Notes: generated by a model from the sequence alone, not told the origin. 15,043 nt of DNA from Archangiaceae bacterium (GCA_043750125.1 JAYVCD010000272.1:1-15043), one strand, 5' to 3'; counted from the first letter of the stretch, positions 2,992 to 10,693 are shown. Numbers and translations: made by a program.

Positions 2992-4007
2992 AGCTTTTCG
3001 TCGCTTGCTCTCCCGGCCTGGAAGCCGCCCTCGAAGCCGAAGTGAAGGCGCTGGGTTTCACCGGGCACGCGGTCGCGGGAGGAGTCGAAGCCGAAGGTCC
3101 GCACGACGCGCACGAGACCGCGAACCTGTGGCTGCGCTGTGCGACCCGCGTCTGGGTGCGGATCGCCGAAGTCGGTCGCCCCGAAGAGCTGGCCCGGGTG
3201 TCTCTGGGTGCCTACAAGGCGAAGGCGATTCCGATTGCGCTCGACTGCCCTCCGAGGTGGCAGTCGATGGCCGAGCGAACGTGGGGAAAGTCTTCTTCCC
3301 ATGGGCTGGAAGTCATGCTGCGCGAGGACGAGGGGGGCCGCTGCCAATTGAGCGTCGATTCGAGCGGAGAGCTGCTCCACGTGCGCGGCTACCGGCAGGA
3401 AATCGGAAAGGCTCCGCTGCGGGAAACCCTGGCGGCGGGGGTGCTGAAGCTGGGCGGCTATTTTGGGGAAGGCCCGCTGTGGGACGTGATGTGCGGCTCG
3501 GGGACGTTGCTCATCGAGGCGGCGTGGATCGCGATGGGCAAAGCGCCCGGAGCGTTGCGTCACTTCGCCTTCGAGTCCTGGCCTTCGCACGACGCGAAGC
3601 GGTGGGAAGCCAAAGCCCGGCAGACCCCGAGGGCCGGGCCGTTGCCGCTGCTGCTCGGAACGGATCTGAACTCGGGCCAGCTGGGGATCGCGCGCCGCAA
3701 TGCCAAGCGCGCCTTCGCTTTCGAGAGCCTGAAGCTCGAGCGGATGGATGCGACGAAGCTGACCGTTCGCGAAGGGCCGAAGGGCCTGGTGGTGGCAAAT
3801 CTTCCCTACGGAATCCGGGTGGGAGATCGCAGCGGGCTTTCCGAGCTGTATGCGGCGTTGGGTGCATCGCTGAAGCAGGCGGTGGCCGGGTGGCGCTTTG
3901 CGTTCCTCCTTCAGGAATCAGAGGACGCGCTCGGGCTGCAGTTCGAGGGGGTGCACGAGGTGAACAACGGCGGAATCCGTTGCCGGGTGGTGACGGGCAA
4001 AGTCTGA
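2988..4007 (+). CDS. THUMP-type RNA guanine-N2 methyltransferase (RlmL N-half/YpsC-like), 339 aa
   Basis: ATG 2988 overlaps the upstream TGA (ATGA). Motifs: ACSPGLEAALEAEVKALG, ANLWLRCATRV, DSSGELLHVRGYR, APLRETLAAG, DVMCGSGTLLIEAA, ANLPYGIR, NGGIRC. Confidence 0.9.
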   Translation: MKLFVACSPGLEAALEAEVKALGFTGHAVAGGVEAEGPHDAHETANLWLRCATRVWVRIAEVGRPEELARVSLGAYKAKAIPIALDCPPRWQSMAERTWGKSSSHGLEVMLREDEGGRCQLSVDSSGELLHVRGYRQEIGKAPLRETLAAGVLKLGGYFGEGPLWDVMCGSGTLLIEAAWIAMGKAPGALRHFAFESWPSHDAKRWEAKARQTPRAGPLPLLLGTDLNSGQLGIARRNAKRAFAFESLKLERMDATKLTVREGPKGLVVANLPYGIRVGDRSGLSELYAALGASLKQAVAGWRFAFLLQESEDALGLQFEGVHEVNNGGIRCRVVTGKV

Positions 4008-4041: not shown

Positions 4042-5436
4042 ATGTCACTTGAAAAAGCGTTGGCCCGGTTTGGGGCTGAGAAAAAGAACTACCTCGAAGA
4101 CTTGAAGACGTTGGTCCGGATTCCCTCGGTGTCGTTCGCCGGGTTCGACCCTCAGCAGGTGCGCGCGTCGGCCGAGGCGACCGCCAAGCTGCTCGAGCGG
4201 CGCGGGTTCAAAAACGTGCGGCTGCTCGAGATTGAGGGCGCCCACCCTTACGTCTACGGAGAAATTCTCGACGCTCCGGGCAAGCCGACCGTGCTGCTCT
4301 ACGCGCACCACGACGTCCAGCCGGCGGGCGATGCCAAAGCGTGGAAGTCGCCCCCGTTCGAGCCGACCGAGCGCGACGGCCGGTTGTTCGCGCGCGGGGC
4401 AGCCGACGACAAAGCCGGAGTGGTGGTGCATTCGTCCGCCGTCGACGCCTGGCTCAAGGGCGCCGGATCTCTGCCGCTGAACGTGAAGGTGATCATCGAG
4501 GGCGAAGAAGAAATCGGTTCCGAGCACCTGACCGCGTTCCTGCAGAAGCACAAAGCGCTGGTCCAGGCCGACTGCATCGTGCTGACGGACACCGGAAACT
4601 TCGAAACCTCGCTGCCCAGCATCACCACCGCGCTGCGGGGCCTGGTCACGGTCGATGTCGAGGTGAAGGCGCTCAGGCAGTCGCTGCACTCGGGAATGTG
4701 GGGCGGGCCCGTTCCGGATCCAGTGATGGGGTTGTGCCGGATGATCGCCACTCTGACGCGGGAAGACGGGTCGATTGCGATTCCCGGAATCTTAGAAAAG
4801 GTGAAGCCGCTGACCGCCGAAGAGCGGCAGTGGATCAACGAGCTGCCGGGAGATCGCGCCCACTTTCGCAAGCAAGCGGGGATGCTCGCGTCGGTCGAGC
4901 TGCTGGGCGGAGATCGCCACCCGTGGGAAACGAACTGGCGCCAGCCGTCGCTGACCGTCAATGCGATTCAAGCCAGCACCCGGGCGGACGCGCGCAACAT
5001 CATCTGCGAATCGGCGTGGGCCCGAATCGGCATTCGACTGGTGCCCAACCTCGATCCGCTCGACGTGCAGAAGAAGCTGGTCGATGCACTGAAGAAGTCG
5101 GTGCCCTGGGGGCTCGAGGCCGACATCCAGTCCGACCAGACCGTGAACTGGTGGTACACCGACCCCAGCGGGCCCGCGTTTCAGGCGGCGTTTCGCGCGC
5201 TCGAAAAAGGCTACGGAAAGAAGGCGGTCGCGATTGGTTGCGGCGGCTCGATTGGCTTCGTCGAGCCGTTCAGCAAGGAGCTCGGGGGAGTCCCCGCGCT
5301 GTTGATCGGCGTCGAGGACCCGTACACCAACGCGCACTCGGAAAACGAAAGCCTCCACCTGGGCGACTTCGACAAGGCGATCGCCAGCGCGATCTACCTC
5401 TACGACGAGCTGGCGAAGGCGCTCACCGCGCGGTAG
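4042..5436 (+). CDS. M20/M25/M40 metallopeptidase (CNDP/Dug1-like dipeptidase subgroup)
   Basis: Metal and catalytic motifs YAHHDVQP, ARGAADDKAG, EGEEEIGS, AHSENE; also LHSGMWGG and GGSIG of the dipeptidase subgroup. Confidence 0.93.
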   Translation: MSLEKALARFGAEKKNYLEDLKTLVRIPSVSFAGFDPQQVRASAEATAKLLERRGFKNVRLLEIEGAHPYVYGEILDAPGKPTVLLYAHHDVQPAGDAKAWKSPPFEPTERDGRLFARGAADDKAGVVVHSSAVDAWLKGAGSLPLNVKVIIEGEEEIGSEHLTAFLQKHKALVQADCIVLTDTGNFETSLPSITTALRGLVTVDVEVKALRQSLHSGMWGGPVPDPVMGLCRMIATLTREDGSIAIPGILEKVKPLTAEERQWINELPGDRAHFRKQAGMLASVELLGGDRHPWETNWRQPSLTVNAIQASTRADARNIICESAWARIGIRLVPNLDPLDVQKKLVDALKKSVPWGLEADIQSDQTVNWWYTDPSGPAFQAAFRALEKGYGKKAVAIGCGGSIGFVEPFSKELGGVPALLIGVEDPYTNAHSENESLHLGDFDKAIASAIYLYDELAKALTAR

Positions 5437-5443
5437 CCGCAAA

Positions 5444-5486
5444 TGAAAATGTGCGGCCCACTCATCGCGGGCCGCACACGTTTTCA
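5444..5486. terminator. Probable bidirectional intrinsic terminator
   Basis: Perfect 10-bp stem TGTGCGGCCC (5450-5459) / GGGCCGCACA (5469-5478) with a 9-nt loop. It is flanked by TGAAAA and TTTTCA and lies between convergent stops at 5436 and 5508. Confidence 0.8.
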
Positions 5487-5507
5487 ACCACCCGGAAAAG
5501 AGCAGGG

Positions 5508-6506
5508 TTACGGGGCGCAGACGCCCATCAAGCAGCGCTCGCCGGCAACGCAGTCACAGTTGCTGACGCACTGGGGACCTGAGCCCGGCAGGCAGTAGCC
5601 GATGCGGCAGGTCTCGGTGGACGTGCACTGCGAGGTGCTTCCGCAGCGGTTGCGGCAGGTCGAGTCGACGCAGTCCTGACCGGCTCCGCAGTCGCCACCG
5701 CTGCTGCAGGTGCCCGGAGCGCGGGGACGGCACAGGCCGGCCTGGCAGCTCTCGCCGGTGTTGCAGTTGGTGTCGAGGCTGCAGCCATAGAAGCACTTGG
5801 CATTCACGCACCAGGCGCCGACGCCGCACGCCGCATTGTTGGTGCAGCTTCCGGGAGGATTCGGGTGTCCGTTCCCGCCGCCCGTTCCACTGGTGCCGCC
5901 GCCGGTGCCGCTGGTGCCGCCACCGGTGCCGCTGGTGCCGCCGCCGGTGCCACTGGTACCGCCGCCGGTGCCGCTGGTGCCGCCGCCGGTGCCACTGGCG
6001 CCGCCGCCCGCGCCACTCATCCCTCCGCCACCGCCGGCTCCGCTGCCACCATCAGGGTTGGAGGTCGGGCCACAGAAGCCCGCCTGGCAGGTCGAAGTGC
6101 CGCCGCAGTCGACATCGCGGTAGCACGGACGGCTGCAATAGCCATTGAGACAGACGTCGAGCCCGCATTGATTGTTGGTGGTGCACGCCTTGGAGCCGGG
6201 AGGAAGCGGGCGGCAGGTGTTGGCGACACAGTATTCGCCGCCGTGGCAGTCGGTGTTTTTTGCGCAAGCTCCGGAGCAGACGCCGTTGCTGCACGCCTCG
6301 TTGGCCTTGCAGTCGCTGGCCGCGGTGCACTTGGGCAGGGTCGAACATTTCCCAGCCCGGCAAGAACAAGAGGAATGGCAGTCCGACGTCTCGGAACAAG
6401 AGGAGCCGGGACAGCCGAACGTGCAGTCCTGCCAGGGTTCTGCCTTGTCCACGATGCAGCCAGCGAAGAGCAGCGGTGTCAGCAACAGCGCGAAGCGCGA
6501 GTTCAT
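5508..6506 (-). CDS. Cysteine-rich repeat lipoprotein with central Gly/Ser/Thr linker, 332 aa
   Basis: ATG 6506 gives MNSRFALLLTPLLFAGC, a signal peptide with lipobox FAGC (Cys17). It has ten C-x5-C-x4/5-C-x4-C repeats and 45 Cys in total. The track's longer start (6704) crosses the intergenic promoter region. Confidence 0.88.
   Translation of the reverse strand: MNSRFALLLTPLLFAGCIVDKAEPWQDCTFGCPGSSCSETSDCHSSCSCRAGKCSTLPKCTAASDCKANEACSNGVCSGACAKNTDCHGGEYCVANTCRPLPPGSKACTTNNQCGLDVCLNGYCSRPCYRDVDCGGTSTCQAGFCGPTSNPDGGSGAGGGGGMSGAGGGASGTGGGTSGTGGGTSGTGGGTSGTGGGTSGTGGGTSGTGGGNGHPNPPGSCTNNAACGVGAWCVNAKCFYGCSLDTNCNTGESCQAGLCRPRAPGTCSSGGDCGAGQDCVDSTCRNRCGSTSQCTSTETCRIGYCLPGSGPQCVSNCDCVAGERCLMGVCAP
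5874..6020. repeat. In-frame 21-bp tandem repeat, about 7 copies, encoding (TSGTGGG)n
   Basis: Units close to GCCGCCGCCGGTGCCRCTGGT start at 5874, 5895, 5916, 5937, 5958, 5979 and 6000. Differences among the core copies are synonymous. Confidence 0.95.
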
Positions 6507-6553
6507 TGGTTTGGGCGAGCGCGGGGAAGGAATTTTGTCCGCGTTCAATTCAA

Positions 6554-6583
6554 TTCGTTGCCTCCGGTGGGTCGGTTGATCAT
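6554..6583 (-). promoter_or_regulatory. Putative ECF-sigma promoter for the Cys-rich lipoprotein gene
   Basis: The minus strand reads ATGATCA-accgacccaccgga-GGCAACGAA, i.e. TGATCA-N17-AACGAA, preceded by an A7 tract. A mirror copy lies at 6607-6636. Confidence 0.65.
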
Positions 6584-6606
6584 CGGAATTTTTTTGCGTC
6601 GAACGA

Positions 6607-6636
6607 ATGATCAGTTCGCGGGGGGGTGGCAACCAA
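6607..6636 (+). promoter_or_regulatory. Putative autoregulatory ECF-sigma promoter for the sigma/anti-sigma operon
   Basis: The plus strand reads ATGATCA-gttcgcgggggggt-GGCAACCAA, i.e. TGATCA-N17-AACCAA, ending 52 bp before the sigma ATG. It matches the copy at 6554-6583 at 15 of 16 box positions. Confidence 0.65.
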
Positions 6637-6688
6637 CGGAAGTGTGCTCGCTGAATCCCTCGAAGTCTGGTTGGACCGGAGCTCCACG

Positions 6689-7300
6689 ATGAGCGCCGGC
6701 GCAATTTCCCTACAGCGCCTGGTCCCCACGCCAGCGCCGCCGTCGGCCCTCGAGGCCCGGCTGTTGCGGTTGGTCGAACGGATTCGCAACGACGACATCC
6801 TGGCGTTCGAAGAGCTCTATCGACTGACGCGGGACGATGTGGCCCGCACGCTGGGTCACTTGATGGGTCGTCGATCGGATTTGGAAGACCTGATTCAGGA
6901 AACCTACCTGCGGCTGTTGAAGGCGGTCCCCAACTTCCGGGGAGAGTCCCAGTTCCGGACCTTCCTCTACCGGGTCTGCGCCAACGTGGCGCTGATGCAC
7001 CAGCGGTGGTGGCGGCGGCGGCGCGAAGATCTGGTGGAAGAGCTGCCGGAACAACACAGCAGCGACGACCCCGAGTCGTCCGCGCAGGCCGCCGAATCGG
7101 CCCGACTGGTTCAGCAGGCGTTGCAGAACCTGTCAGAGAAGAAGCGGGTGGTCTTCGTCTACCACGAGCTGTGCGGCATGGGTCCGGAGGAAATCGCCCT
7201 CGCCGTCGACTGCTCGTACAACACGGTGCGCTCGCGGCTCTTTCACGCGCGCCTCGAATTCACCCAGGCCCTGCGCGCGCTGGTGGAGGGCAGGCGATGA
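6689..7300 (+). CDS. ECF-subfamily RNA polymerase sigma-70 factor, 203 aa
   Basis: ATG 6689 follows GGAG (6678-6681). Region 2: AFEELY...EDLIQETYLRL...FRGESQFRTFLYRVCAN. Region 4: LSEKKRVVFV...EEIA...NTVRSRLFHAR. Confidence 0.95.
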   Translation: MSAGAISLQRLVPTPAPPSALEARLLRLVERIRNDDILAFEELYRLTRDDVARTLGHLMGRRSDLEDLIQETYLRLLKAVPNFRGESQFRTFLYRVCANVALMHQRWWRRRREDLVEELPEQHSSDDPESSAQAAESARLVQQALQNLSEKKRVVFVYHELCGMGPEEIALAVDCSYNTVRSRLFHARLEFTQALRALVEGRR

Positions 7301-9090
7301 AAAGGCACGATCAGACTCTGCTGTGGCAGTACGCCGCGCGCGAGCTCGACACCGAAGAGTCGGCGCTGGTCGAGCATCACCTTTCGGAATGCGTCGAGTG
7401 CAAAGAGCGGCTGCTCGACGTTCGCCAGGCGCGGCTGGTGCTGCAGGATGCTCAGGCGCCCCGCCCCAACGTGAAGTGGGAAAAAGTCGATCAGGGAATT
7501 TCGCAGTTGGTGGAGGCGCAGCTGCTGCGTCAGTCGAAAGCGGCGCAGCGAGGTTGGCGATGGCCGTTGGCGTTCGCGGCGATCGCAGCCGCAGTGATTG
7601 CGCTGGGGTCGACGGGCAAGCTCGACCTGACCCGTGCTCCCGAAGAGGCGCCCAGTGAAGCCATCGCCTCGAGCGGAACCGAGGTGGAGCAGGCGTTGGG
7701 CTTGAGTCGGGTGGGCGCGGAGCTGGCGCTGGCGCGGCAGGGTGAACGACTGGGTGCGGGAGAAGTGCTGCGGACGGCGGTGGGAGGGCGAGGGGTATTG
7801 GCGCTGCCGGACGGAAGCCGAATGCGATTGGCGGGTGGGTCCCAGCTGGCGTTGACGCGGACCGAGGCGGACGACGTGGCGTTGACGCTCGAGCGGGGAA
7901 GGGTAGGGGTGCAGGCCTCGCACCGGGTTCGCCGGGGTTTTGTGGTGCACACCAACGGAATGTCGGTGCGGGTGGTGGGCACGTTGTTCCTGGTTTCGCA
8001 GGTGGCGGGGGTGGTGGAAGTGGCGGTGGCCGAGGGGACGGTGGTGGTCGAGCCGCCTGAAGGCGAGGCGCTGCGGCTGGTGGGAGGAGAGCGGGTGCGC
8101 TTCGAGCGAGGCAACTGGAAACCGCTTCGTGGGGCGGTGAGTGTTGGGCAGGTGGCAGAGCTCAATGAGCTGAGTGCTCCGCCGATGACTGAAGCGGCGG
8201 GAGTTGCGCGGGCGCCGGCCGGAGGAACGTTGCCGGCGGGAGCGATGGCGCGCCGCGACGATGCCAGGGTTCATTCGATGCAGCAGACTTCGCAGGTGGT
8301 GGGTGTGGCGTTGACTCCGGACCCGCCGGCTTCGCAAGAAGAAGGGCTGTTGCCGAGGAAGCAGGCGGTGCCGAGGGGCGCACCGACGCTGTGGCCATTG
8401 GGTCATCCACGAGCCCAGAGCCCGGCGAATCCGCAGAGCGCTGGAGCGACGAGCGAAGACGAGGCGCCGCAGTTCGAAGAGAAGGCTTCGGTGTGGCCGT
8501 CGATGGGCGGGGGGCCGGTGACCTACGAGCCCCGAATGCGCAAGCGTTCGACGGCGAAAGTGGCGAGCAATCCCGCGGCGGCAGTGCCGCAACCTTTGGC
8601 GGCGGCGATTGCGGGGGACATCACGCCAGCGGCGGACGTGGCTCCGCAGTACCAGCTGGACGTAGAGCCGCCGGCGTCGGAAGCGCAGAAGGGCGCGGAC
8701 CCGGCAGAGTTTGGAGAGTTCCCGAAGGCGCAGGCGCCGACTGCGGCATCGCCGGTTGCGCCGAAGGCTCTGACGAAGGCGCGAGCGGGAGCAACGCCGA
8801 AGCAGCTGAAGAATGCGGATCCGTTGCCTGAGGATCTCGAGACGTTGTTTCTTCAGCGCGCTGAGCGAGGTCTGGATCGGGGCATCTGCGAGAGGTACCT
8901 GATGGGGTTGCAGGAAATCGCAGGGGACTCGAGCCGAAACGAGCGTGCCGAGAAGGCGCGGATACTCAGAGCGCGCTGCTACGACGCGAAGGTTCGGCCG
9001 GACCTTTCCGAGATTGAGTACCGCCGGTACCTCGAGGTGTGGCCGAAGGGCCGGCACGCGGATGAGGCGCGCAAAGCGATCATCGAGTGA
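7297..9090 (+). CDS. Membrane anti-sigma factor: zf-HC2 (ZAS), TM helix, FecR-like domain, Pro/Ala-rich linker, C-terminal TPR-like domain, 597 aa
   Basis: ATGA overlap with the sigma stop. HLSECVEC is an HxxxCxxC motif; TM WPLAFAAIAAAVIALG. FecR-like LPDGSRMRL...LERGRV...VRVVGTLFLV...VAVAEGTVVV. C-terminal ILRARCY...EYRRYLEVWPKGRHADEAR. Confidence 0.88.
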   Translation: MKRHDQTLLWQYAARELDTEESALVEHHLSECVECKERLLDVRQARLVLQDAQAPRPNVKWEKVDQGISQLVEAQLLRQSKAAQRGWRWPLAFAAIAAAVIALGSTGKLDLTRAPEEAPSEAIASSGTEVEQALGLSRVGAELALARQGERLGAGEVLRTAVGGRGVLALPDGSRMRLAGGSQLALTRTEADDVALTLERGRVGVQASHRVRRGFVVHTNGMSVRVVGTLFLVSQVAGVVEVAVAEGTVVVEPPEGEALRLVGGERVRFERGNWKPLRGAVSVGQVAELNELSAPPMTEAAGVARAPAGGTLPAGAMARRDDARVHSMQQTSQVVGVALTPDPPASQEEGLLPRKQAVPRGAPTLWPLGHPRAQSPANPQSAGATSEDEAPQFEEKASVWPSMGGGPVTYEPRMRKRSTAKVASNPAAAVPQPLAAAIAGDITPAADVAPQYQLDVEPPASEAQKGADPAEFGEFPKAQAPTAASPVAPKALTKARAGATPKQLKNADPLPEDLETLFLQRAERGLDRGICERYLMGLQEIAGDSSRNERAEKARILRARCYDAKVRPDLSEIEYRRYLEVWPKGRHADEARKAIIE

Positions 9091-9111
9091 GTCGAGGTTT
9101 CCTGAGTGGGG

Positions 9112-9250
9112 CCCGCACTGGTGAGGTTTACCCGCGCGCTTCGACGGTGCCGCTCACCAGTGGGGGTAGATCACACCGGTACACCAGCAAAACGCCTGAG
9201 GCGAACGCAGCAGAACGCAAAGGCGAGATGAATGAACAGCTCATCTCGCC
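9112..9250. other. Two 10-bp inverted repeats in the convergent intergenic region (possible terminators or structured RNA)
   Basis: CACTGGTGAG (9116-9125) pairs with CTCACCAGTG (9153-9162). GGCGAGATGA (9222-9231) pairs with TCATCTCGCC (9241-9250). Confidence 0.6.
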
Positions 9251-9505
9251 AATGCCCGAGGAACGAAGGAACCTGCGCCGCGCCGGGGCACTTGCGGAAG
9301 ATTCCCGAGCGCACAAACGGCTGCGACGCGAAACCGGCCGATGTCGGATTGCGCCGTGATCTGAGGCAAATCGGGGAGGCGCGAAGGGGTGGCGCAGCGC
9401 CCGGCGTCGCGCCGCACTCGCCCCATTCTTCCCCGGGCCTGGATGCGCCAAGACGAAGCTAAGGGGGCCGCGAGAGCCAGTCGACGAGCAAAATCGACAG
9501 AACAA

Positions 9506-10693
9506 TCACTTCTCACCCGGAGGAAGTGGCTGTCCGGGCCAGGCGACGACCTGAACGGTCGAGTGATCATCGAGGGCGAGGCCATCGCCGCGGGGTTCGG
9601 TGAGGTCGAGCTTGACGACGGCGCCGCGGGGCAAGCGGAAGAAGAGCTTGTTGTTTTCGGTCTGATGTTTCTGCTGCAGGGCGAGGCCGACGCGGCCTTC
9701 GGGGCCGCACCCCATGAAGCGAAGGCGACCTTTGCCTTCGAGCGGCTCGGAGACGATGCGAAACAACCGGCCGGGCGGAGGTTCGGCCCAGGGTTCACCT
9801 TTGGGGGCCAGGGCGAGATAGCTCATCTTCAGAGACTCTTTATGAATCCCGGCGAGCCGGGCGATCGCCTCGACGGTCTTGGGCATTTTCCAGTCGCGTT
9901 CGGCGTGGCACCAATCGGATTCCTTGGTCAGGGCGGGGCAGTTGCCGCGGAAGAGGCAAGGGGCGCGGACGGCGTACCCCCGGGACACCATGCGATCGCG
10001 AAGCTGGAGCAGGGCGCGCGAAGTGTCGCGCAGAGCGGGCTCGAGAATCAGCAGGCTGCCGCGGGGTTTGACCCTGGCGAGGACGGTCTCGAGCAGGGCG
10101 GCGCGCTTGTCGAGCACCGACGCGGTGATCTCTTTCCCGTCGTGAAACAGCTCGTTGACGACGTGGCCCATGAGGACGAGGTCGAACTGGCCGTCGGGAA
10201 GGGGGCGGTCGGGGCTCCATTCGCGGGTGGCGATGGGCTCGGTGGCTTCGGTGGCCAGCGCTTTGGCGAGATCGAGGGCGGCCTTGCTGCGATCGGCTGA
10301 AGTGACGGCGGCGGCGCCGGCGTCGAGCGCGGCGAAGGACATCGGGCCGGGACCGCTGCCGAGATCGAGGACCTCGCGGGGGCGGGGGAGCTCGCCTAAG
10401 GCCTGGCGGGCCTGGGCGTAGCTGACCGGCCAATAGAACAGCAGGTAGGCGCCGAGCAGGGCCGGGTCGTCCATGTACTTCGCCCCGGCGAGCTGGCGAT
10501 CACGGGTGAGGCCGAGAGAGAGGGTGCGAACGCCCTGGGAGACCTGCTTGAGCTCGTGGGGAGTGAGCTCGCCGTCGTCCTCTTCCTCTTCTTCGTACCG
10601 CTGCTTCTTCGAAACCTTGCCGCCGCGTGAACGCCACACCTTGATCAGGAGAGGCATCCAGCGTGCAAGGTCCTTATGGTAGTCGCTCGACAT
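9506..10693 (-). CDS. Rsm22/METTL17-family SAM-dependent methyltransferase-like protein, 395 aa
   Basis: From ATG 10693 (MSSDYHKDLARW); an alternative ATG is at 10657. Motifs: AYLLFYWPVSY, VLDLGSGPG, LLILEPA, APCLFRGNCP...DWCHAE, KMSYL, RIVSEPLEGKGRLRFMGCGPEG. Confidence 0.88.
   Translation of the reverse strand: MSSDYHKDLARWMPLLIKVWRSRGGKVSKKQRYEEEEEDDGELTPHELKQVSQGVRTLSLGLTRDRQLAGAKYMDDPALLGAYLLFYWPVSYAQARQALGELPRPREVLDLGSGPGPMSFAALDAGAAAVTSADRSKAALDLAKALATEATEPIATREWSPDRPLPDGQFDLVLMGHVVNELFHDGKEITASVLDKRAALLETVLARVKPRGSLLILEPALRDTSRALLQLRDRMVSRGYAVRAPCLFRGNCPALTKESDWCHAERDWKMPKTVEAIARLAGIHKESLKMSYLALAPKGEPWAEPPPGRLFRIVSEPLEGKGRLRFMGCGPEGRVGLALQQKHQTENNKLFFRLPRGAVVKLDLTEPRGDGLALDDHSTVQVVAWPGQPLPPGEK

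Follow-up and report, generated by a model that had tools for sequence, protein, structure and literature searches.

The window analysed here, a 15,043-nucleotide stretch of DNA from an Archangiaceae bacterium (GCA_043750125.1 JAYVCD010000272.1:1-15043; positions are counted from its first letter), carries at 5508-9090 a self-contained, conserved module of three genes: a minus-strand gene encoding a cysteine-rich lipoprotein (5508-6506) and, divergent from it on the plus strand, genes for a sigma factor of the extracytoplasmic function (ECF) type (6689-7300) and a single-pass anti-sigma factor (7297-9090). We consider it likely that this is an autoregulated sigma/anti-sigma pair of the Myxococcaceae whose one universally conserved target is the divergent lipoprotein. 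Both transcription units display the same promoter signature, and thus the lipoprotein is most likely an output of the sigma factor. A first-pass annotation of the window had described the same divergent layout and had suggested the lipoprotein as the output; the layout is confirmed by the gene coordinates, and the suggestion gains support from the ECF-type promoter that the lipoprotein gene shares with the sigma operon and from an RNA 5' end that lies at the predicted place in a Myxococcus relative.

The promoter signature, a bipartite element of the form TGATC(A/G)-N14-GGCAAC(N)AA, was spotted by eye on both strands of the aligned intergenic regions. In the window the predicted ECF-type promoter of the sigma/anti-sigma operon lies at 6608-6633 on the plus strand (-35 TGATCA at 6608-6613, N14, -10 GGCAAC at 6628-6633), and that of the lipoprotein gene at 6557-6582 on the minus strand (-35 TGATCA at 6582-6577, N14, -10 GGCAAC at 6562-6557), the latter with a predicted transcript start near 6549 and a 5' untranslated region of ~43 nt. 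When a relaxed consensus, GATCN-N14-[GT]G[CA][AG][AT]C, was counted in 76 loci, it was present on the sigma side in 66, on the lipoprotein side in 69 and on both sides in 60; spacings of 10-13 and 15-18 were seen in 0-3 loci, and shuffled sequence returned 0.008 matches per locus. The paired occurrence of the element is far beyond chance. The spacer sequences diverge freely while the two elements and the 14-nt distance between them are fixed, which is how a promoter recognised by a single sigma factor should look. A position weight matrix (PWM) built from 20 sites in 14 loci of the Archangium-like clade scored the sigma-side site at 37.5 bits and the lipoprotein-side site at 26.5 bits. In the genome from which the window derives (6.2 Mb, 89% complete) just 44 matches exceeded 14 bits in 12.3 Mb (both strands), and of these the sigma-side site scored highest and the lipoprotein-side site third highest. 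In 79 loci the upstream sequence extends to at least 250 nt; among these the PWM reached at least 14 bits on the sigma side in 70 and on the lipoprotein side in 53; in the 68 loci that remained after removal of the training contigs the corresponding numbers were 59 and 46. In the Myxococcus/Corallococcus clade the -10 element takes a variant form, and the two sides of the intergenic region vary together in this respect. Scanned for sigma-70 promoters, 5300-9600 yielded 0 sites. An ECF operon is typically under the control of its own sigma factor, through a group-specific promoter (PMC7826278), and together with the shared motif this makes it the simplest reading that the sigma factor encoded here reads both promoters.

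The first-pass annotation had spoken of a twin motif shared by the lipoprotein gene and the sigma operon. An element common to both transcription units indeed exists, TGATCA-N14-GGCAAC, but it is not the literal 8-mer GGAATTTT, which occurs at 6529 and 6585, both times on the plus strand, and is not kept outside the genus. A naive genome count of GATC[AG]-N14-GGCAAC, which yielded 45 matches against 5-10 at spacings of 12, 13, 15 and 16, was dropped because all spacings of the same codon phase give 32-48 matches, and the excess is thus a coding-phase artefact. Pairs of short GC-rich motifs display a threefold spacing periodicity throughout the genome (32-48 in one codon phase versus 3-18 in the others), a trap for promoter-motif counts in high-GC genomes.

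The trio is a conserved unit of the Myxococcaceae/Archangiaceae. In 13 of 15 loci fetched around lipoprotein matches in related genomes the sigma gene adjoins the lipoprotein gene in divergent orientation, the two exceptions being a 3-kb contig and a locus with a lipoprotein-like gene alone. A scan with the sigma alignment, taking one genome per species, returned 80 loci, all of them in Myxococcota, which include Archangium, Hyalangium, Corallococcus, Myxococcus (Myxococcus xanthus among them), Pyxidicoccus, Citreicoccus and many metagenome-assembled genomes (MAGs). In 76 of these 80 loci a divergent lipoprotein gene lies upstream of the sigma orthologue, and as two of the four exceptions have 350 bases or less of upstream sequence, the proportion among informative loci is 76/78. 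The neighbourhood survey that the first-pass annotation had recommended, for cysteine-rich lipoproteins beside sigma orthologues, was therefore positive in 76/80 loci, and the outcome that would have spoken against its proposal, pairs that mostly lack the lipoprotein or sit beside TonB-dependent transducers, was not seen (76/80 loci; 0/60 flanking open reading frames). The flanking genes vary by clade, an M20 peptidase with an Rsm22-type methyltransferase, Methyltrans_SAM with DTW, or lysine aminomutase (14 loci, Pfam), while the trio stays; thus only the three genes travel together, as a portable unit. In one MAG locus (L077:1-2310) a gene for a ResB-like membrane protein (>570 amino acids) replaces the lipoprotein, and a motif copy of 30.9 bits points towards it. 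In two Hyalangium-type MAGs (L083 and L087) the anti-sigma frame ends after 84 codons and the sigma-side motif was not detected, with the lipoprotein-side motif intact, a state that could reflect regulator decay or assembly error.

RNA from a Myxococcus relative bears on the predicted promoters. Raw reads of one RNA-seq run (X24) were mapped on the M. xanthus AM003 locus (L095:2400-5637), where 1613 reads aligned at 95-99% likeness. Over the lipoprotein gene (2832-3695 of L095) depth was 60-108 for pairs whose first mate lay on the plus strand versus 15-33 for the opposite orientation; in the usual stranded protocols such an excess denotes minus-strand RNA, the sense of the lipoprotein gene. 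The sigma and anti-sigma genes were covered at a depth of ~20-42 in either orientation, with a slight sigma-sense excess just past the predicted sigma promoter. The sole pile-up of molecule ends flagged in 3.2 kb, made up of 7 molecules whose first mate is on plus, is at position 3747. In this locus TGATCA occupies 3780-3775 and the -10 hexamer 3760-3755, such that the RNA end lies 8 nt downstream of the hexamer and 64 nt upstream of the lipoprotein ATG, and agrees to the nucleotide with the predicted start of the lipoprotein promoter. Three further runs (X1, X2 and X5) consist of assembled contigs that span the locus in long pieces and are uninformative on strand, starts and level.

The sigma factor (203 amino acids; 58-92% identity in 12 orthologues) comprises the sigma2 and sigma4 regions alone within ~200 amino acids, and is thus an ECF (group IV) protein. 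In Pfam it matches Sigma70_r2 at 8.3e-14 and Sigma70_r4_2 at 3.3e-13, and in NCBIfam it scores 99.3 bits against TIGR02937 (sigma70-ECF; cut-off 42.9). GGAG precedes its ATG (6689) by 8 nt. A GTG in the same frame at 6644, ~3 nt past the predicted transcript start, is an alternative start that would add 15 residues, and a GTGCTCG string is conserved behind the -10 element on the sigma side in several relatives.

The anti-sigma factor (597 amino acids), whose start overlaps the sigma stop (ATGA), has a hybrid architecture. Its N-terminus matches zf-HC2 at residues 6-35 (1e-6, Pfam) and displays H-x3-C-x2-C (H28, C32, C35) followed by a single membrane helix at ~85-105, as in class I of the zinc-associated anti-sigma (ZAS) proteins; the profile also matches RslA of M. 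tuberculosis (3hug_B) with an E value of 0.0011. The FecR family PF04773 is matched at residues 157-249 (2.4e-15), which identifies a periplasmic FecR beta-sandwich. In the AlphaFold2 (AF2) model, built from 32 sequences, a confidently predicted cytoplasmic helical domain (6-53) leads into a long helix that includes the membrane span (61-103), a FecR-type beta-sandwich (128-280; predicted local distance difference test (pLDDT) ~95), a disordered Pro/Ala-rich tether of ~200 residues (299-505) and a compact helical, tetratricopeptide repeat (TPR)-like end domain (514-596; pLDDT ~95). Foldseek aligned the sandwich with the Parabacteroides anti-sigma factor BDI_1681 (4m0n; 2.4e-9) and with the signalling domain of PupR (6ovk_R; 1e-7), the PupR alignment covering just ~131 of 213 residues; the end domain returned weak TPR/BamD-type matches. 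C32, C35, C531 and C561 do not vary among 58 complete orthologues, and G228 and T229 are retained by at least 90% of them; the alignment of 32 sequences shows no variation at H28, C32, C35, G228, C531 and C561, and has T229 in at least 90%. G228-T229 aligns with the conserved V-x-V-L-G-x-x-F position of BDI_1681, and FecR and FoxR self-cleave at a Gly-Thr bond by an N-O acyl shift (PMC9249621). By this analogy Gly228-Thr229 is a candidate self-cleavage site. In the model Cys531 opens one helix of the end domain and Cys561 closes the next, which is antiparallel to it, and the two could form a disulfide.

The same first-pass annotation had cast the lipoprotein as standing in place of a TonB receptor. 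Its observation that no TonB-dependent transducer is encoded in the window is correct: Pfam found a TonB-receptor domain in 0 of the 11 window proteins scanned, and in the flanks of 14 orthologous loci it found a TonB-dependent receptor in 0 of 60 open reading frames. The genome, at 89% completeness, contains 12 Plug-domain matches, none of them on the contig of the window, and it yielded no receptor that has a signalling domain. The idea of replacement, however, was not borne out. The anti-sigma factor has a zinc-finger N-terminus, and the receptor-contacting, STN-like subdomain (FecR_C/DUF4974) was not found in it by Pfam at E values up to 0.01; indeed, what follows the sandwich in the AF2 model is disorder (299-505) and then helices, with no folded receptor-contacting subdomain. 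To read a replaced receptor into a protein of this kind is to over-read its FecR domain. As both the receptor-contacting subdomain and the partner transducer were looked for and are absent from the proteins scanned, the anti-sigma factor is not a member of the FecR family and the module lies outside the FecI/FecR/FecA class. On the reading preferred here no TonB-dependent receptor takes part in it. The genome's sole STN match (C140:18074-18214) is part of a frame of 971 codons whose contig has no Plug match, and this frame probably encodes a secretin-type protein rather than a TonB-dependent transducer.

The lipoprotein itself (332 amino acids, 45 cysteines) has a signal peptide and a lipobox, LLFAGC, that leads to Cys17. 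Orthologues display a lipobox together with 35-54 cysteines, and across 26 of them C17 is invariant and G16 is present in at least 90%, features that identify the protein as a lipoprotein by motif; besides the lipobox cysteine, ~30 cysteine columns are invariant in the 26 sequences. The 44 cysteines other than the acylated Cys17 are even in number, which would fit full pairing into up to 22 disulfides. DUF7107 (PF23416) is matched at residues 81-124 (51.0 bits, cut-off 24.6, E 1.8e-13) and Dickkopf_N below threshold, and NCBIfam returned 0 families at E values up to 0.1. The AF2 model contains two domains, ~30-150 and 215-332 (pLDDT 80-95), each a chain of short units composed of a helix-turn and a beta-hairpin, joined by a linker with pLDDT <50. 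The linker, (GGTSGT)n in composition and rich in Gly, Ser and Thr, is encoded by a 21-nt tandem repeat at 5875-6017 (6.8 copies, 89% matches), and its length differs widely among orthologues (alignment columns 190-290); the repeat may be a slippage-prone, length-variable tether. Foldseek of the model against the PDB found nothing at E <=0.001, and the best rows were cysteine-rich domains of TNF receptors, Dkk4 and squash knottins at E 0.6-3. A VIA-align search through 48,161 chains placed 11 at Z 2-3, all of them knottin toxins or Dickkopf proteins, aligned with residues 28-80 or 210-262. The predicted fold may thus be described as a chain of small knottin/Dickkopf-like disulfide units, the likeness being weak and local. 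A word-indexed protein search with the full-length lipoprotein gave 5 weak matches, the words being dominated by the low-complexity linker, and the same search with residues 215-332 gave none. Repeats of the DUF7107 type occur at ~10 other loci of the genome, and a further lipoprotein with DUF7107, encoded on contig C208, is without an ECF gene beside it. What is linked to the sigma factor is therefore this orthologous group and not the domain.

In the genome of the window the best PWM matches ahead of genes on other contigs precede two exported proteins, neither with a Pfam family: an exported protein of 160 amino acids (contig C162, L108:1326-1805, minus strand; motif of 29.8 bits, kept upstream of 6/6 orthologues) and a lipoprotein of 291 amino acids (contig C24, L109:1361-2233, minus strand; motif of 21.0 bits). 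For the latter the motif is present upstream of 10/13 orthologues or paralogues, 8/13 at a PWM score of at least 14 bits, and the protein ends in ...LTF, a Phe-terminal end that we take to be typical of outer-membrane barrels. In both gene families the ATG lies 9-11 nt past the -10 hexamer in nearly all cases, which suggests that the C162 and C24 mRNAs are leaderless or near-leaderless. Judged from these upstream regions, the motif appears to mark a small set of envelope proteins. A further operon, on contig C42 (L133:4-4309, minus strand), encodes an ECF sigma factor paralogous to the one described here, a FecR-domain zinc-finger anti-sigma factor (483 amino acids), a PGA_cap protein and a Ser/Thr protein kinase, and carries GGATCG-N14-GGCAAC 13 nt ahead of the ATG. 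The resemblance of this motif makes cross-recognition possible, and the additional regulon members are therefore not assignable between the two sigma factors by sequence.

A working model may be sketched from these elements. At rest the zinc-finger domain of the anti-sigma factor would hold the sigma factor, as in related families. An envelope signal would act on the periplasmic part, with its sandwich, long tether and putatively disulfide-bearing TPR-like end domain, whereupon the anti-sigma factor would presumably be removed by regulated proteolysis. The freed sigma factor is predicted, from the conservation of the sites, to read two back-to-back TGATCA-N14-GGCAAC promoters, of which the sigma-side copy would drive its own operon in positive feedback and the other the lipoprotein gene. 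Once exported and acylated, the lipoprotein would fold with up to 22 disulfides and probably travel to the outer membrane. On this model it is the output of the module, and it may additionally feed back on the anti-sigma factor.

Several observations weigh against an autoregulated pair with the lipoprotein as its target. The promoters might be read by a sigma factor other than this one: contig C42 holds the paralogous sigma factor (43% identical) with its FecR-domain anti-sigma factor and similar upstream motif. With the Archangium-like PWM the lipoprotein-side site falls below 14 bits in 26/79 loci, mostly in Myxococcus and Corallococcus, a shortfall explained mostly by the different -10 element of that clade. 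The RNA 5' end comprises 7 molecules from one run in a different species, and no comparable end was flagged in that run at the predicted sigma start; moreover, a depth of ~30x on both strands indicates that the library was weakly stranded or contained DNA. Finally, two loci, L077 and L082 (Archangium minus), keep the sigma/anti-sigma pair without an adjacent lipoprotein gene, and a lipoprotein orthologue was not found elsewhere in those two genomes. It could be argued that the shared motif is read by another regulator, for example the C42 paralogue or another myxobacterial ECF sigma factor, and that the lipoprotein gene and the sigma operon are co-regulated from outside, with neither in control of the other. 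Consistent with such an arrangement, GGATCG-N14-GGCAAC precedes the gene of the C42 paralogue itself, the motif also precedes unlinked genes, and a -35 element similar to TGATC is reported for group ECF11 (PMC7826278). The same source gives autoregulation from a group-specific promoter as the rule for ECF operons, however, and the motif travels with the sigma gene in 66/76 loci across changing contexts, with the -10 variant changing in parallel on both sides in the Myxococcus/Corallococcus clade; we thus regard control from outside as quite unlikely. That the adjacency is merely inherited gene order, the lipoprotein being an ordinary structural envelope protein with no functional link to the sigma factor, is very improbable: DUF7107-type cysteine-rich repeats are common in the genome, with ~10 other loci, and the C208 lipoprotein shows that such proteins occur without an ECF neighbour, but the flanks have been reshuffled between clades while the trio and its paired promoters stayed together, and a bipartite motif repeated on both strands with constant spacing would not be expected unless control were shared.

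A different question is whether the lipoprotein, in addition to being produced by the pathway, takes part in its signalling. It is possible, though we propose it only tentatively, that the lipoprotein is mainly a sensory partner of the anti-sigma factor, a candidate ligand or co-sensor of the end domain or the sandwich, which is compatible with its role as an output; its loss, misfolding or mislocalisation would trigger the pathway, and sigma-dependent expression would close a negative feedback loop. Such a partnership would account for the near-obligate co-occurrence of the genes (76/78 informative loci), although this would follow just as well if the lipoprotein gene were a target. The 200-residue tether and an end domain of a protein-binding type, as modelled by AF2 and with weak BamD/TPR matches, could reach an outer-membrane lipoprotein, and the anti-sigma factor has invariant periplasmic cysteines (Cys531 and Cys561) beside a partner with 44 cysteines; yet the two genomes with no detectable lipoprotein orthologue keep an intact anti-sigma factor, end domain included. 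Periplasmic feedback proteins that are divergently encoded and co-regulated are well known, and CpxP with CpxA, RseB with RseA, and the receptor that shields a FecR-type anti-sigma factor from proteolysis resemble what is envisaged here. A co-folding run of anti-sigma residues 110-300 and 505-597 with lipoprotein residues 18-332, each entered with its own alignment, was made without controls; it gave 0.00 in both runs (mark 0.32) and is neutral on binding. The stronger proposal that the lipoprotein is at once the output and the sensed ligand, a self-reporting envelope sentinel at the outer membrane, we consider unlikely. It would be equally doubtful that the demands of its maturation, up to 22 disulfides and lipoprotein sorting, are what a tethered end domain stapled by Cys531-Cys561 monitors, and there is a similarly small chance that a failure of oxidative folding or trafficking leads, through lost contact or binding of the misfolded form, to degradation of the anti-sigma factor and synthesis of more sentinel.

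The autoregulated pair with its lipoprotein target may be set against characterized systems. Similar to FecI/FecR/FecA and PupI/PupR/PupB, the module combines an ECF sigma factor with a single-pass anti-sigma factor that has a FecR-type sandwich and, as a candidate self-cleavage site, a conserved Gly-Thr pair placed where FecR and FoxR cleave themselves. It differs from these systems in its zinc-finger N-terminus, in the lack of a receptor-contacting subdomain and of a TonB-dependent transducer nearby, in the predicted autoregulation of the operon and in its target, which is a lipoprotein and not a transporter. FecR-like anti-sigma factors without receptors are described for ECF46, ECF229, part of ECF242 and ECF267 (Casas-Pastor et al. 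2021), and those of ECF267 (Sorangium/Chondromyces) are fused to TPRs (PMC7826278). Compared by description, ECF267 is the closest described case and is likewise myxobacterial, but it comes from other genera, has kinases in its context and non-conserved promoters, and its description mentions no cysteine-rich lipoprotein. The C42 operon is like the published ECF267, with its anti-sigma factor of FecR-like type and kinases in context, again on the basis of the description. As the group of the sigma factor itself, ECF267 was set aside as reported from other genera, in a comparison by description, and ECF216 (Myxococcales, zinc-finger anti-sigma factor) for its different gene context, likewise by description.

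Within the myxobacteria the DdvS/DdvA pair of Myxococcus xanthus also combines a zinc-finger single-pass anti-sigma factor with a flexible linker, a periplasmic TPR sensor and RseP-type intramembrane proteolysis (PMC11506125). The N-terminal domains of the module's anti-sigma factor match DdvA weakly (8rlz, E 0.0034), but DdvA, as described there, has a periplasmic TPR-CHAT region of ~900 amino acids and controls a CBASS/CRISPR defence island, with no FecR sandwich and no lipoprotein partner; this architecture excludes DdvS/DdvA as the identity of the module.

In other bacteria, CpxP with CpxRA and the CseA lipoprotein of Streptomyces sigE-cseABC are cases in which a stress regulator drives a neighbouring envelope protein that exerts negative feedback on the sensor. 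Both are two-component systems with no sequence or fold relation to the module, which would follow their design if the lipoprotein were also a ligand. The first-pass annotation had likened the lipoprotein loosely to RcsF and NlpE, outer-membrane lipoproteins with structural disulfides that report the state of the envelope to an inner-membrane partner. Neither gene is known to lie next to that of its signalling partner as part of a conserved unit, and the lipoprotein described here, with its knottin/Dickkopf-like disulfide units, has no RcsF or NlpE match in Pfam at E values up to 0.01. Our literature search found no paper on this trio or on DUF7107, with the proviso that the supplement of PMC7826278 may hold a description of this sigma group.

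Thus the sigma/anti-sigma principle is ordinary, and what is new is the conserved cysteine-rich lipoprotein partner, the definition of the promoter and the hybrid architecture of the anti-sigma factor. Myxobacteria carry dozens of ECF sigma factors, very few of which have a known target or signal. This study provides, for one conserved family, a predicted promoter, a primary target and candidate further targets, all exported, which are testable in Myxococcus xanthus, a genetically tractable species with an orthologous locus. A FecR-type sandwich outside TonB-dependent signalling, joined to a zinc finger and to a tethered, putatively disulfide-bearing TPR-like domain, matters for the annotation of FecR-domain hits. 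If the lipoprotein were sensed as well as induced, the module would be a compact sensor of envelope quality of a new design, and if it further reported on its own maturation, the module would represent an ECF-based counterpart of RcsF/NlpE logic in a single portable unit of three genes.

The module is bounded in the window by predicted RNA hairpins, close to where the first-pass annotation had drawn its limits (5444-5486 and 9116-9250). On the left, a GC-rich, terminator-like hairpin with T-runs at 5449-5479 (13-pair stem with 9 GC pairs; T-rich tail on the minus strand) lies 29 nt past the lipoprotein stop and 13 nt past the stop of a convergent M20 peptidase gene, and is likely a terminator shared by the two. 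On the right, two hairpins at 9112-9166 and 9217-9255 precede a convergent gene for an Rsm22-type methyltransferase. The other neighbours in the window are housekeeping genes, and include NifU, methyltransferases, the M20 peptidase, an ABC transporter, an exonuclease and an SPFH protein. Rfam matched no family on 5300-9700 at E values up to 0.1. Between the anti-sigma stop and the stop of the Rsm22-type methyltransferase gene, 415 nt (9091-9505) contain no convincing open reading frame, and one hairpin of this gap has 14-nt arms and a 27-nt loop.

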